In this document: positions 8,900 through 15,823 of the stretch, in pieces | Position numbering within the stretch: position 1 is the first letter of the stretch | Layout: each line of letters opens with the position of its first letter | Source of the DNA: Dictyostelium discoideum | Lineage: Eukaryota | Length of the DNA: 64,000 nt | NCBI GenBank assembly: GCA_000004695.1 | Contig: CM000155.2 | Span: forward strand, 2,912,001-2,976,000 | Direction of reading: 5' to 3' | Notes under the pieces: model-generated | What the model saw: the letters and a program-made list of their open reading frames with translations, nothing else | Databases searched by the model: none | Told to the model about the DNA's origin: nothing | Translations under genes and position numbers: made by a program

Positions 8900-11800
8900 A
8901 TGCCAGTTTCAAAAAAACAAAAGGTAGATACAACAGTTACTGTAACAACTAAAAAACAAGTTGAAAGTACTGAAAAACCACATAAACAATCAAAAGAATC
9001 TAAAGAATTAAAAGCTACAACAACCCCAACTACAACCACACCAACAACAACAACTACTAAAAAACAAACAACAACCAAAGAATCAGTATCAAAACAACCA
9101 ATTATTAAATCACCAAATAGTTCAAAGGTTCATCATTGTTCATTCTCAAGTTGGTTACCAAAACCAATTACATCTATTAGTTATAATCAAGAAAATAATT
9201 TAATTGCAGTATCACGTCAAGAATCACCACTTGAAATTTGGATTAAAAATGATCAAGAATTAATTTTACTTAAAGTAATTATTATATTTAAAAAATAAAA
9301 AAAAAAAAAAAAAAAAAAAAAACAATAATAATAATAAACAAGTATTAATTTAAATTATTATTAAATTTAGACATTAGGAGGATCAAAATTTGATTTACCA
9401 ATTATTTCAGTAATATGGTTAAATAAAACAATATTATTATCAACATTTGAAAATAAATTTGTAATTTGGGATATTTCAAGTTATTCAATTATACAAGAAT
9501 TAAATTCAATTGGTACTGTAAGAGGTGTATCATTTAATAGATTATTAAATTTATTAGCAGTTTGTACACATGATTCAAATGTACGTTTATATAATTTCAA
9601 AAAAGATGATAATGAAATTGAATATCAATCTTCATTCCCATCAGTTTCAGATTCAAAAATTAATACTATTCAATGGGCATTAGATCAAAAAACTATCTTG
9701 GTTGGTTGTCAAAATCAATTGGTTGTTTTTAAAGTTGATTCTTTACGTTCATCTTTAACTATTACAACTGATAATATAGTTTCATTAAATTCATTAAAGT
9801 AAATATATATATATATATATATATATATTTTTTTTTTTTTTTTTTTTTTTTTTTTTTTTTTTAATCAAAAAAATTAATTAAAATTTATTAATATATTTTT
9901 TTATTTTTATTTTTCTAAAGTGATAATACAGTTGCTTGTGGTTTTACAAATGGTTTTATTTCAATTATTGATATTAAATTTGGTAGTATTATTCAAGATT
10001 TTAGAAATCTTCATGCTCCAGTTAGATCAATTCAAGTTAATAAAAAAGGTGATCAATTCTTTGCATCTGGTGATGAAGCAACCATTGTATCATATAATAA
10101 ATCAAGTGGAAATAATAAATGGGCATTCAGTGGTCAACATAAAAGAGATAGTCATGATATTAAATGTTTAGAAATTACAAATACTCATTTAATCTCTGGT
10201 GGTAATAGTACTCAAATGATCTTTTATGATTTATCTAATTTCTCAAGTTTATCAAATTCAAATGGTTCAATTCCAAATTATTTTAGATGTAAATCATTAC
10301 CATTACCAAATACAATTGCAATTACACAACCATCATCATCATCACAAAATCAAATTCTTTTAATTGAATTTTCAAGATATCAAATTAATATTTGGCAATT
10401 AGGTTCAACTAATGATAATAATGATAATTTAGATTTACCAAATGGTACCCATTTAAATTTATCAAAAAAAACTAAAAAATTATTACAATTTGAATCAAAG
10501 GTAAATAATTTAAATTCTATATATATAAAAAAAAAAAAAAAAAAAAAAAAAAAAAAAAAAAAAAAAAAAAAAAAAATTTTAAGATTTAAAATATAATTAT
10601 CTAAAAAAAAAGAAGGAAAAAATCATTTCGATATTTTATTTGTTTTTTTACCTTTTTATAAAAAAAAAAAAATTGGAAAAAAAAAGAAAAAAAAAAAAAG
10701 AAAAAAAAAAGAAAAAATTAATTGACACAATCATTTAAATCTTGATTATTTCGGTTTGCGCTATTGTATGCTTGATAAAAACGTTCTTGGTCTTCATCAG
10801 AGTCTTCGTCGTTGTCATGGTTATAAACATGATTTTTGTTTTTACTATTTTTGATAACATTATCAACATTATAATTTACATTTGTATTTGTATTTGATAT
10901 TGTTGTTGTTGTTGTTGTATTGGTGGCGGAGGCAGTGGTGGTGGTTGTTGTGTGGTTACTACCATTAATAAAATAATTCGTTTGAGCTGGTGAAACTCTT
11001 GCGTTTGGAGGTCTTTTTCTTGGAGGTTGAGTTGGTTGTTGTTGTTGCTGGTGCTGTTGTTGCTGTTGTAGTTGTTGTTGTTGTTGTTGTAGTTGTTGTT
11101 GCATGATTTGATACTTATAGCTATATAATGATTTATATTTTTTGGTTTGTTTATACCAAAAGAAATATTCAATAACATCTTGACATGATTTACCTTTAAT
11201 TAAAGTTGAAATCTTTTTGAAATCTTTTTTATAAATTTTAAAACCTTCATCAAATAAATCTTTTTGAAGTTGTGACCAAGTTTGATTGATATGATCTTCT
11301 AAACATGGTTGGATGGTATCGAGTGAAGAGAAATCAATAGATTCCAAAGCATCTGCAACAGAGTAATCGTATTCATCTAAAATCGCCAAAATTGAAGAGT
11401 CTGGTATTTTGGAAACATTTTTATTTGTTTGGACACCCATCGATCTCAATGAATCATCAATACTTTTCAATTTCTTTCTTGCCGCACTAATAAAATGATC
11501 AACTTCTTCACTTTTTAATTTATATGGTGTATAAATTAATGTAGGTGGTAAATGATCCTCTAAAATTTTAGAAAAAAAAAAAAAAAAAAAAAAAATAATT
11601 AAATTAATAATATATTTATAAAATATAAAATAAAATAAAATAAAATACTTACCAAAATACACATTATATGGTCTACATTCTGGAATTTTAGCTTTTTGTG
11701 ATTCAATATAGGCAATTTTTGATAACCGGGCTTCTTCTTCATCATCCGTAGATGATTCATCAGATGATTCAGATGACTCGTCAGATTCATTATTATCATT

Positions 11801-14800: not shown

Positions 14801-15823
14801 ATATATATATATATATATATATATATATATATATATATATATATATATATATATATATATATATATATATATATATATATATATATATATATATATATAT
14901 ATATATATATATATATATATATATATATATATATATATATATATATATATGTATATTTATTTTTACTAATTTTATTTATTATTTTATTTTTTTAGAATTC
15001 AGAAAATATTGATAATGTTGATATTTCAAATAATGGTGAATATTTTTGTTTTTCAACTAGATTAGAAACAAAATTATATTCAATTCAAAAGAAACAAGAA
15101 AATAGTGATAATATTATAATTAAAAAGGTTGAATTACCAGAAGAAGTACAATCATCAAATATTGCTAAATTCAGTAAAGATTCAAAATCATTACTTTTAG
15201 CTAAAAATAGTGATGAAATTTATCAACTCAATTTAGAATCAAATCAAGTTACTATAGTTTATAAAAAAGATCAAAATGAAGATCAAGATAAAAATAAAAT
15301 TAAAAATATTGTATTAATGAAAGTTGATAATAATAATTTAGCAGTTATCGATTCAATGAATCAAGTTTTAATATATAAAATTAATAACAAAAACAATGAA
15401 TTACCAATTAAATTACCAAATTTAAATTCAATTCCAATTGAATTATTCTTTTCAACTTCATCATCATCATCATTATATATTGGTACAATTGATTCAATTT
15501 TATTATTTGATACAAAATCTTTAAAAATCAAATCATCAAAAAAATTACAAGGTAATAATAAATCTGTTAAATTCATTACTGAAAATCCAAATAACTCTAA
15601 TGAATTACTCATTTGGACTCAAAATGAACAATTTAAAGTAAATAAAGATTTATCAAATGAACAACAATTAACAAAAGCTGGTTCTTCATTCACTGAAGTT
15701 ATTTTTGCCTCTCAATCTGGTAATCAAGGTGATCTCGTTTTATTAGATTTATCTTTTATTGATAAAGTATTACCAAAACTTCCAGAAGCTATTAAATTAA
15801 AGAAATTTGGTGGTAGTAATTAA
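8900..15823 (+). CDS. utp4: UTP4/cirhin-like WD-repeat nucleolar protein, about 690 aa. Exons: 8900..9274, 9371..9799, about 9921..10500 (exon-3 acceptor phase unresolved) and 14996..15823. Intron 3 spans 10501..14995 (about 4.5 kb).
   Basis: The exon-1 product '[43 protein letters not shown]' aligns with the human cirhin N-terminus 'KVHRVRFFNYVPSGIRCVAYNNQSNRLAVSRTDGTVEIYNLS'. Later exons show WD-like repeats ([42 protein letters not shown]). Exon 3 ends at ..ESK|gtaaat in phase 0. Exon 4 starts after 'attttatttttttag' in phase 0 and is open to the stop codon. Without splicing, exon 3 reads through into a poly-K tail. Confidence 0.7.
10718..14467 (-). CDS. ELM2 + SANT domain protein of the MIER/CoREST-like family, with very long poly-Asn/poly-Gln/acidic tracts, antisense inside intron 3 of the UTP4 gene. 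At least one intron at 11560..11652. The true 5' end is uncertain: the first ~40 codons of the maximal ORF look like UTR or intron.
   Basis: The SANT domain '[48 protein letters not shown]' aligns with the MIER1 SANT '[49 protein letters not shown]'. The ELM2-like segment '...[22 protein letters not shown]' lies upstream of it. A 1249-codon ORF is continuous. The minus-strand intron has a GTAAGT donor and a TTTTAG acceptor. Confidence 0.6.
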   Translation of the reverse strand: MTNSFFYFFFIFYYYYYFLIFNFFYLLFFIILKLIDKRTTLSPTKRFKVVPDRIKKYNKDKLSPPFTTTATTTTSTLPTTSTSPTTTTSPTTTSSSLKTTTTAITKKVSPTTTKTRSTTAKEIANSVINKKESNIDEDDEDDDEDDNEDDDNNDNDESDQQVKLKKPIVHNNNNNNNNNNNNNNNNNNNNNNNNNNKNNKNNKNNKNKKNKSKNIETSPPITSRHNSGSLAKEKGKKETKKTSPPSSEIYNSHSSSFDDQTNRKRKRKKPNHEDYNINNKINKNESEYKIDSSNNNNNNNSNNNNNNNNNNNNNNNNNNNNNNNNNNNNNNNNNNKNNNNDNNTGDEVNDSPPITNHNNNNNNIKLTLSSDTSDSLPTNSIKSNGSPSSTTSSLPSTNDIFFNLINENINNNVINNHDHNDHNNNNNRKIKTSEESESGEESDSYYSALSDNDLVLSSPTTIKNILSEKSSSLPTINEDYSTSNIKENEENQSTEELEIFYLDSSENQDENTINNDDGDEEPEDDKEDTLKYQKPIESRKESLSPFPLDDIDLDIEDLELENKSTTSLSNNHNNNILIIDNDDDDDNSNNINHNNSTNNNNNNNNNNDNNNINNNDNENTSTTTTTNSVNTGKRKRGNGNGGGDFMFFYDPYVDLSSSHLDDINGFFDLDSKISNLQDYRLSRKTPTSPLSTSLGGLNDGVVLINDDNTNSTEYNLKLGEQQQQQQQQQQQQQQQQQQQQQQQQQQQQNLNQQQQWPSCYIEEINESEIERERQKVKPNVKNNVNIIDISSNNEEISEKEKENLKDKEIQDNPQEEEEEEQEEEQEEEDEDEEDQKEKVPEQKIKQEEEEELEDIHIPKYRNYNNINGNGNNNNNNDNGDNNNNKNNINNDNNESDESSESSDESSTDDEEEARLSKIAYIESQKAKIPECRPYNVYFGKYFILFYFIFYKYIINLIIFFFFFFFSKILEDHLPPTLIYTPYKLKSEEVDHFISAARKKLKSIDDSLRSMGVQTNKNVSKIPDSSILAILDEYDYSVADALESIDFSSLDTIQPCLEDHINQTWSQLQKDLFDEGFKIYKKDFKKISTLIKGKSCQDVIEYFFWYKQTKKYKSLYSYKYQIMQQQLQQQQQQLQQQQQHQQQQQPTQPPRKRPPNARVSPAQTNYFINGSNHTTTTTTASATNTTTTTTISNTNTNVNYNVDNVIKNSKNKNHVYNHDNDEDSDEDQERFYQAYNSANRNNQDLNDCVN
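14769..14950. repeat. (TA)n dinucleotide microsatellite of about 90 units, immediately 3' of a 100-N gap (14669..14768), inside the large UTP4 intron.
   Basis: Direct reading: 'atatatatat...' uninterrupted except for two 'ac' variants at its 5' end. Confidence 0.95.

Follow-up and report, generated by a model that had tools for sequence, protein, structure and literature searches.

UTP4/cirhin is a t-UTP/UTP-A subunit of the SSU processome, and the ELM2-SANT module is found in class I HDAC corepressors (CoREST/RCOR, MTA1, MIER, and MIDEAS). In animals, antisense genes are known to be nested within long introns of Drosophila and human host genes, while chimeric contigs carrying false joins are known from Sanger-era assembly of AT-rich DNA. 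The window analyzed here, a 64,000-nucleotide stretch of Dictyostelium discoideum DNA that appears to be AX4, resembles the nested genes at face value only, with an opposite-strand ELM2-SANT gene lying between exons of UTP4. A preliminary description took the locus to be a 4.5-kb UTP4 intron that carries a complete nested antisense gene. That reading did not survive comparison with other assemblies, and we consider it very probable that the 4.5-kb "intron" is an assembly artifact, a chimeric contig in the AX4-type D. discoideum reference.

The UTP4 gene and the sequence at either end of its interruption are arranged as follows, where L001 denotes one region of a near-identical D. discoideum long-read contig (GCA_054883475.1) and L007 another region of the same contig:

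8900 to 9274, plus strand: UTP4 exon 1, with ATG at 8900 and donor AAA/gtaatt
9371 to 9798, plus strand: UTP4 exon 2, from ag/ACATTA to TTAAA/gtaaat, frame kept
9921 to 10500, plus strand: UTP4 exon 3, terminus ...FESK, phase 0
10501 to 10526, plus strand: authentic 5′ piece of UTP4 intron 3, gtaaataatttaaattctatatatat, identical to L001 from 7592
10527 to 10576, no strand: A50 homopolymer (50 A's by TRF), the probable point of the false join
14669 to 14768, no strand: 100-N assembly gap in the window sequence, between the foreign tail of the putative chimeric contig and the contig with UTP4 exon 4
14769 to 14995, plus strand: authentic 3′ piece of UTP4 intron 3 (AAA, (TA)n, ...tttttag), the counterpart in L001 being the 193-bp intron from its A-run/(TA)n boundary onward
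14996 to 15823, plus strand: UTP4 exon 4, 275 aa and stop, open in phase 0

Much of what had been described from the letters is present in the window. Exon 3 meets the intron at 10500/10501 with ...GAATCAAAG/gtaaat, an acceptor (...atttttttag/) lies directly 5′ of 14996, and the 100-N gap is where it was reported. The exon at 14996 is indeed in phase 0 and does not open with a start codon (the earliest in-frame ATG is at 15317), although it encodes 275 aa and a stop rather than 276 aa. The microsatellite described as (TA)~90 corresponds to a TA-rich tract at 14771 to 14960, with 76 uninterrupted TA units.

Splicing of the four exons yields a product of 736 aa, which differs by one residue over its whole length from a model in another D. 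discoideum assembly (P0001). Its top solved-structure match was human UTP4 (7mq8_LN; E 8.8e-26, query residues 75 to 550 against 4 to 475), in an alignment that runs ungapped across residues 461/462, i.e., the exon 3/4 junction, and Chaetomium Utp4 (5oql_D and 5n1a_A) also matched at ~1e-7. Five group-4 assemblies have full-length UTP4 orthologues of 723 to 784 aa, and that of P. violaceum is 671 aa long. Pfam matches of the WD40 propeller type were numerous in residues 75 to 380, with RMC1_N and ANAPC4_WD40 passing their family cut-offs and the rest falling below theirs; the exon 4 part alone had no Pfam match, and NCBIfam returned no UTP4 match, as expected from a library of prokaryotic families. 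These comparisons identify the predicted protein as a UTP4/cirhin orthologue and exon 4 as its true C terminus, joined straight to exon 3, as the preliminary description had proposed. Like known UTP4, it has WD40 propeller content and a similar length (736 aa here versus 686 aa). It differs in a predicted Thr/Lys-rich N-terminal extension of ~70 aa and in its final ~185 residues (551 to 736), which phmmer left unaligned. The product of exons 1 to 3 is identical over residues 1 to 461 to the AX4 UTP4 model (P0012; Q54BS1/XP_629130.2), which is 462 aa long and ends in ...FESK plus I; that last residue, I462, derives from the insert, where "I*" matches ATT TAA after an AG at ~10583.

We compared the locus with other assemblies and found the 4.5-kb arrangement absent from every other strain and species examined. 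In GCA_054883475.1, UTP4 intron 3 is 193 bp (gtaaat...A32(TA)44...tttttag) and the gene, 2612 bp long, is flanked as in the window by a purple acid phosphatase gene and a 1474-aa gene. Alignment of this contig to the window shows 1 substitution over 7.6 kb and 6 over 6.4 kb, with L001 1-7650 collinear with window 2892-10559 and L001 7650-14161 collinear with window 14861-21373. It is probably AX2-214, judging from Holland et al. 2025 (PMC12745789) and the sequence identity. The comparison strain is near-identical to the window but a different clone. Elsewhere, intron 3 is 90 and 88 bp in two wild D. discoideum strains, 79 bp in D. citrinum, and 118 bp in D. firmibasis, so that five independent long-read assemblies (three of D. 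discoideum, with D. citrinum and D. firmibasis) place it at 79 to 193 bp. In a sixth assembly, D. cf. discoideum, the gene is likewise compact at 2536 bp, and the gene span in D. citrinum and D. cf. discoideum is 2441 to 2536 bp. A giant UTP4 intron that is a property of the species, with a whole ELM2-SANT gene on its opposite strand and perhaps transcriptional interference between the two genes, would explain why the window at face value has a correct donor, acceptor, and phase and why exon 4 is the true C terminus. However, the compact gene in all six of these assemblies argues against it, as does the state of the supposed nested gene, and we regard this explanation as having next to no chance of being correct.

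The features of the minus-strand gene, and of the gap at what the long-read contig indicates is its native site, are as follows:

10577 to 10717, minus strand: ELM2-SANT 3′ flank and start of the misplaced segment, within the match of window 10542-14668 to L007 17959-22085
10718 to 11559, minus strand: ELM2-SANT exon 3, with the C-terminal part of ELM2, SANT, a Q/T/N-rich tail, and the stop (gene reconstruction and domain searches)
11560 to 11652, minus strand: 93-bp ELM2-SANT intron 2 (gtaagt...ttttag), stop-free and in frame
11653 to 14361, minus strand: ELM2-SANT exon 2, 2709 nt, low-complexity and N/Q/T/E-rich, jointly with exon 3 encoding residues 38 to 1219
14362 to 14668, minus strand: 3′ part of ELM2-SANT intron 1 (307 of 506 bp), the contig ending inside an (ATT)n microsatellite
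48784 to 48883, no strand: N-gap at the native site of the ELM2-SANT segment, with L007 1-12897 equal to window 61796-48884

The window copy of this gene is 5′ truncated and misplaced. The minus-strand open reading frame at 10718 to 14467 does have 1249 codons and its own 93-bp intron, as first described, but it is neither intact nor complete: its TTG start is an ORF-finder convention only, the earliest in-frame ATG is codon 646 (at 12532), and coding sequence in the copy begins at 14361, following the acceptor aattaatag/. Between this acceptor and the gap lie 307 bp with a single ATG, which starts an open reading frame of 3 codons and is without a usable splice donor, and neither the ATG-bearing exon 1 nor the promoter was found within the window. 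An incomplete "nested" gene is contrary to the expectation from a giant intron that hosts a complete one.

The type of protein had been correctly recognized. A dictyostelid family profile matched the ELM2-SANT regions of RCOR3, RCOR1, and MTA1 (E 3e-13 to 4e-10) and the SANT regions of RCOR3, RCOR1, MTA1, MTA3, and NCOR2 (E 3e-13 to 1e-7). Its alignment to MTA1 positions 46 to 182 covers the C-terminal part of ELM2 and SANT, and in the family-profile match the SANT domain lies directly C-terminal to ELM2. Searched singly, the sequence scored under the Pfam gathering thresholds for both ELM2 (E 0.021, 16.1 bits versus 21.7) and Myb/SANT (16.9 bits versus 24.4), and the Pfam ELM2 match was recovered in 2 of 4 family members (best E 0.0054). 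In UniRef, the orthologues from Heterostelium and Polysphondylium are named for their ELM2 and SANT domains. Among 50%-identity representatives, a full HMMER search returned distant dictyostelid orthologues only, at 40 to 44% identity; in a local phmmer control for that search, a self-like target would reach 1e-92. Word-index protein searches with the ELM2-SANT region, singly or as an alignment of 4 sequences, gave no matches, those aligned sequences themselves included, and so carry no weight on whether the gene is missing. No exact match was returned for the first-ATG model, the partial model, the reconstructed 1219-aa protein, or a UTP4 fragment of the C-terminal 168 aa, and a literature search on Dictyostelium ELM2 or on Q54BS1 found nothing relevant. 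Altogether, the profile matches characterize the predicted protein as ELM2-SANT-like, of the CoREST/MTA type, which by homology may recruit and activate a class I HDAC. Its putative ELM2-SANT module resembles that of the class I HDAC corepressors, but the protein is very long, is ~80% low complexity, and is without a BAH, GATA, or second SANT domain.

The inserted segment has a native locus on the same long-read contig, where window 10542-14668 is matched at 99.976% over 4127 bp and the gene table lists a 1219-aa gene. Since no group-4 orthologue was seen at first, foreign or contaminant DNA had been considered as the source of the insert, and this was dropped upon the 99.98% D. discoideum long-read match. 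Reconstruction of the gene at L007 gave three exons, a 506-bp intron 1, an ATG at L007 22393, and exactly 1219 aa, of which residues 38 to 1219 (1182 residues) are identical to the window copy. The L007 sequence runs on at both sides of the match, into an NIF phosphatase gene in one direction and, past the microsatellite, into exon 1 and then the promoter in the other. The ELM2-SANT gene is complete here, tail to tail (convergent) with the NIF-type phosphatase gene, and the same convergent arrangement was found for the Acytostelium subglobosum orthologue (P0015). A complete gene at another locus with conserved synteny is a further point against a species-level giant intron. Past the position matching window 48884, the next 5 kb of the long-read contig hold the NIF phosphatase gene and then the ELM2-SANT gene. 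This native locus is ~5 kb from an 876-aa gene at window 49150-51780 and, in window terms, ~35 to 40 kb from UTP4 intron 3.

The boundaries of the insert also bear on its origin. The only sequenced junction is the A50 homopolymer, while the opposite end is the (ATT)n microsatellite followed by the N-gap. A-runs are present at both source loci in the long-read contig (A32 in the UTP4 intron and A31 in the ELM2-SANT 3′ flank), and the source-locus alignments overlap only within the A-run, with L001 reaching window 10559 and L007 beginning at 10542. The preliminary description had raised the chance that the gap at 14669 joins unrelated contigs, and so it does: the insert comes from another locus and is attached only by a homopolymer at its left and an N-gap at its right. 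The contig to the right begins precisely at the A-run/(TA)n boundary of the compact intron.

A real rearrangement in the AX3/AX4 lineage would also place the segment here. Under this explanation, a segment of at least 4.1 kb with the promoter-less ELM2-SANT gene body moved ~35 to 40 kb to its place in UTP4 intron 3; the two poly(A) tracts may have recombined to bring this about, and UTP4 splicing would have to bridge 4.5 kb or more. The left junction is internal to an N-free contig, and therefore some reads or consensus were taken to span A50, which counts against an artifact. Furthermore, the AX4 protein model has the same junction, the segment is missing from its native window position as a translocation predicts, and other lab-strain rearrangements are known in AX4 (PMC12745789). 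However, all boundaries except the homopolymer are N-gaps (14669 and 48784), both breakpoints fall in sequence that an assembler could not cross (A50 and (ATT)n), and the right-hand contig starts at the exact A-run/(TA)n boundary of the compact intron. Such an event would also cut a conserved gene from its exon 1 and promoter and place >4 kb in an essential ribosome-biogenesis gene of a haploid organism, and the compact intron is present in a sister lab strain that differs by 1 substitution in 7.6 kb. We consider a rearrangement in this lineage unlikely, with a small chance of being true. Its narrower form, in which a recent poly(A)-mediated translocation put the promoter-less ELM2-SANT body antisense in UTP4 intron 3 of AX4 alone, with AX2 and wild isolates unaffected, is slightly less probable again. 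If it were true, the UTP4 intron would be ~30× the Dictyostelium norm, and a chromatin gene would lose its function or be driven anew from inside the intron.

The window has the look of a draft sequence, with six 100-N gaps in 64 kb, which also favors an assembly artifact, and at other gaps too its blocks are ordered and oriented differently from the long-read contig. At those other gaps, either assembly could in principle be wrong. The contig end beside the 36797 gap resembles a low-quality read tail. A simple 45-kb inversion was considered for the 21374 gap and dropped, as the 876-aa gene maps to a third contig region. These disagreements, with the errors that Nanopore assemblies can make in low-complexity AT-rich DNA, could suggest that the window is right and that the long-read assemblies have collapsed or deleted the insert. 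However, assemblies made independently by two groups, from several strains and species, agree on the compact gene, the segment is present elsewhere in the long-read contig as a complete gene with exon 1, and structural validation of the assemblies was reported by Holland et al. (PMC12745789). We therefore give this explanation very little credence.

We thus return to a false join. With the compact intron elsewhere, the native locus, the truncated insert, and the homopolymer junction all observed directly, we infer that the join arose during assembly rather than in the strain. The real UTP4 gene would have four exons and three short introns, with an intron 3 of ~190 bp that is nearly all A-run and (TA)n, and the real ELM2-SANT gene would be an ordinary, separate three-exon gene at the other locus. 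The assembler may have merged reads via the A31-32 runs of both loci into one chimeric contig, which would run from UTP4 exons 1 to 3 through poly(A) into ELM2-SANT sequence (3′ flank, exons 3 and 2, and half of intron 1) and would terminate in the (ATT)n microsatellite. Scaffolding would then have set the true continuation, AAA(TA)n and exon 4, after a 100-N gap. The AX4 UTP4 model Q54BS1 would be truncated at 462 aa because the false join supplies a splice into ATT TAA.

The value of locating a probable false join in the apparent AX4 reference is practical, and there is no biological novelty in it. It would account for a reference UTP4 model (Q54BS1/XP_629130.2, 462 aa) that is without the C-terminal 275 residues, and the surrounding 64 kb holds further gap-linked differences in order and orientation from the long-read assembly. 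At both loci, the reference as it stands would mislead knockout design, RNA-seq mapping, and any conclusion about nested or antisense regulation.

Compared with nested genes in animals, an N-gap interrupts the host intron here, other assemblies do not have this intron as one contiguous stretch, the guest is without its first exon and promoter, and the arrangement is unconserved in the strains and species examined. Compared with chimeric contigs in Sanger-era assemblies of AT-rich DNA, the junction is a homopolymer common to both source loci, a microsatellite and an N-gap close off the insert at its opposite end, the gene within it is truncated, its native site is a gap, and independent long-read assemblies contradict the arrangement; in nothing tested does this locus differ from such a false join.

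The coordinates in the preliminary description agree with the window sequence, in which the UTP4 exons are as follows.

Exons of UTP4 in the window
8900-9274, plus strand: exon 1, from the window sequence
9371-9798, plus strand: exon 2, from the window sequence
9921-10500, plus strand: exon 3, with 3' end ...GAATCAAAG followed by the donor gtaaat
14996-15823, plus strand: exon 4, open in phase 0, 275 aa plus stop, with the acceptor ...atttttttag directly before 14996

Spliced with GAATCAAAG joined to AATTCAGAA at the exon 3/exon 4 junction, the four exons encode a 736-aa protein. 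A model from another D. discoideum assembly (P0001, ACTFIT_008988) is also 736 aa long and differs from the window product at one residue (Phe/Ser, window 10370). Full-length orthologues of 723 to 784 aa were found in D. cf. discoideum, D. citrinum (two assemblies), D. dimigraforme, and D. firmibasis, and the P. violaceum orthologue has 671 aa. The top solved-structure match was human UTP4 (7mq8_LN; E 8.8e-26; residues 75-550 aligned), and this alignment is gapless over the exon 3/4 junction. Given the 736-aa model elsewhere, the orthologues, and the human alignment, the gene is therefore a UTP4/cirhin orthologue and exon 4 its genuine continuation, both as originally proposed. At window 10370 the base is T (Phe in ...LLIEFSRY...) and in the long-read lab-strain contig it is C (Ser); protein models of both wild D. 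discoideum strains have Ser, and the AX4 model has Phe. The Phe is either a mutation of the AX4 lineage or a base error in the reference.

Read from exon 3 to exon 4, the window carries 50 consecutive A's (A50, 10527-10576), a minus-strand ORF at 10718-14467, an (AAT)n tract leading into an N-gap (14669-14768), and a TA-rich tract (14771-14960) with 76 uninterrupted TA units. We compared this interval with the assemblies of Holland et al. 2025 (PMC12745789), which combine Nanopore and Illumina data and were structurally validated, and with a chromosome-level D. firmibasis assembly. In GCA_054883475.1, which is most likely AX2-214 judging from its near-identity to the window and Table 1 of PMC12745789, UTP4 spans 2612 bp of a 2.2-Mb contig (JBTAPE010000034.1; retrieved part L001) and has the same neighbors as in the window. 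L001 positions 1-7650 align to window 2892-10559 and positions 7650-14161 to window 14861-21373, with 1 substitution in 7.6 kb and 6 in 6.4 kb, homopolymer lengths apart. Intron 3 is 193 bp long there, running from gtaaataatttaaattctatatatat through A32 and (TA)44 to ...tttttag, and it measures 90 and 88 bp in two further D. discoideum assemblies, 79 bp in D. citrinum, and 118 bp in D. firmibasis. The D. cf. discoideum gene is compact as well, at 2536 bp. The 4.5-kb intron first described is absent from these assemblies, intron 3 measuring 79 to 193 bp across three D. discoideum assemblies, D. citrinum, and D. firmibasis.

The inserted segment has a locus of its own on the same long-read contig. 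Using an 876-aa ORF of the window (49153-51780, minus strand), we reached another part of that contig, L007, of which positions 1-12897 correspond to window 61796-48884, the alignment ending exactly at the N-gap 48784-48883, and positions 17959-22085 correspond to window 10542-14668 (99.976% identity over 4127 bp). The contig's gene table places a 1219-aa minus-strand gene at L007 18135-22393. Our reconstruction from L007 yields exactly 1219 aa, with residues 38-1219 identical to the window copy, and has the following structure.

Reconstructed ELM2-SANT gene in L007
22393-22285, minus strand: exon 1, with the ATG
Intron 1, 506 bp, containing (ATT)n
21778-19070, minus strand: exon 2
Intron 2, 93 bp
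18976-18138, minus strand: exon 3

The window contig ends in the middle of the intron 1 microsatellite. Apart from microsatellite matches, the whole window yielded nothing for exon 1, for the promoter, or for the 5 kb separating the aligned L007 blocks. In L007, a NIF-type phosphatase gene (16581-17607; Pfam NIF, E 7.7e-62) directly adjoins the ELM2-SANT gene tail to tail. The Acytostelium orthologue (P0015) is likewise convergent with a NIF gene, and the long-read location is therefore ancestral.

The nested gene had been called complete, and this too must be revised. In the window, an acceptor at 14361 precedes the coding sequence. No in-frame ATG occurs before codon 646 of the ORF, whose TTG "start" is an ORF-finder convention only, and the 307 bp between the acceptor and the gap hold no usable start exon. 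Its assignment as ELM2-SANT-like was sound. The sequence is of very low complexity and a single-sequence search stayed under Pfam thresholds, but a four-sequence profile of the dictyostelid family matched the ELM2-SANT regions of RCOR3, RCOR1, and MTA1 (E 3e-13 to 4e-10), and orthologues occur in Acytostelium, Heterostelium ("ELM2 domain-containing"), and Polysphondylium ("SANT domain-containing"). Neither the 1219-aa protein nor any orthologue from group-4 Dictyostelium species was retrieved from protein databases, although the gene is in the long-read contig's table; this probably reflects a collection gap for extremely low-complexity proteins.

At the junction itself, the window is identical to the L001 UTP4 intron 5' of A50 and to the ELM2-SANT 3' flank of L007 3' of it. 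The source loci carry A-runs of 32 and 31, versus 50 in the window, and the right-hand window contig opens with AAA(TA)n, matching the point at which the A-run of the compact intron gives way to (TA)n. Since an A-run is common to both loci at the join, no sequence apart from a homopolymer supports the nesting. We consider a genuine translocation specific to AX3/AX4, occurring via the poly(A) tracts, very unlikely: both breakpoints fall in tracts that no assembler can span, every other boundary of the insert is an N-gap, a conserved ELM2-SANT gene would be cut off from its promoter, and a haploid organism would have to carry more than 4 kb extra in an essential gene. This combination, a homopolymer join and N-gaps elsewhere, is characteristic of a chimeric contig. 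The giant intron and its nested gene are most likely an error of the reference assembly and no real genomic feature; the gene identities given in the preliminary description are supported, and the nested arrangement is not, as the ELM2-SANT segment belongs to another locus.

The AX4 model of UTP4 (XP_629130.2/Q54BS1; P0012, 462 aa, on a 3,602,379-bp record) consists of exons 1-3 plus "I". This terminal residue and stop fit a splice to ATT TAA after an AG at ~10583, in the first bases of the insert. From this fit, and from the Phe common to AX4 and the window, we infer that the window is the AX4 reference or derived from it and that the false join truncated the reference model. The final "I*" exon is artificial and the correct product has 736 aa; an older 481-aa version (P0014) carries an additional spurious N-terminal extension. 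The D. purpureum model (P0009; 431 aa, 52% query coverage, on a 36.5-kb contig) may be another truncated gene model.

The window is AT-rich and Dictyostelium-like (23% G+C), with six 100-N gaps. In the near-identical long-read contig, the two sequences that flank the gap at 21374-21473 do not adjoin: the left one runs on as unique sequence absent from the window (L001 14162-14612), and the right one begins within a non-LTR retroelement ORF (Exo_endo_phos and RVT_1; retrieved part L006, 4913-9231) that lies ~45 kb off in the opposite relative orientation. Window blocks 21474-36119 and 48884-61796 keep their order relative to JBTAPE010000034.1, each apparently inverted relative to the UTP4 block, and ~27 kb and ~40 kb of that contig between the gap-bounded blocks are missing from the window. 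This block pattern suggests that contigs were misoriented or repeats collapsed in this region of the reference. Block order and orientation differ from the long-read contig (its 75-200 kb part) at gaps 21374, 34749, and 48784. The gap at 34749-34848 corresponds to 3797 bp in the long-read contig, including a gene for a WLS-like transmembrane protein (455 aa; L006 21152-23057). The gap at 36797 falls within a retrotransposon reverse-transcriptase ORF (36590-38671), and the sequence on its left (36680-36796; ...ggggggggggaaaaaaaaaaacccccaaattttaaaaaaaaaaagggccccaaaatttt...) resembles the low-quality end of a read, left unedited where a contig stops. ORFs 41543-41860 and 44636-44917 share their first ~78 residues (MRNVIIYSLVTPYEVRFMKSYMNVV...), which indicates a duplicated element with a period of ~3 kb in the repeat-rich sequence that separates gap 36797 from gap 48784.

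Altogether, the locus most likely resolves into two ordinary, separate genes, which are not expected to interfere with each other's transcription because ~110 kb separates them on the long-read contig. The false join is of low biological interest and moderate value for curation. UTP4 is a WD40 protein; judged by homology, it is presumably the t-UTP/UTP-A subunit of the SSU processome, and the ELM2-SANT protein presumably scaffolds a class I HDAC, like CoREST, MTA, and MIER.
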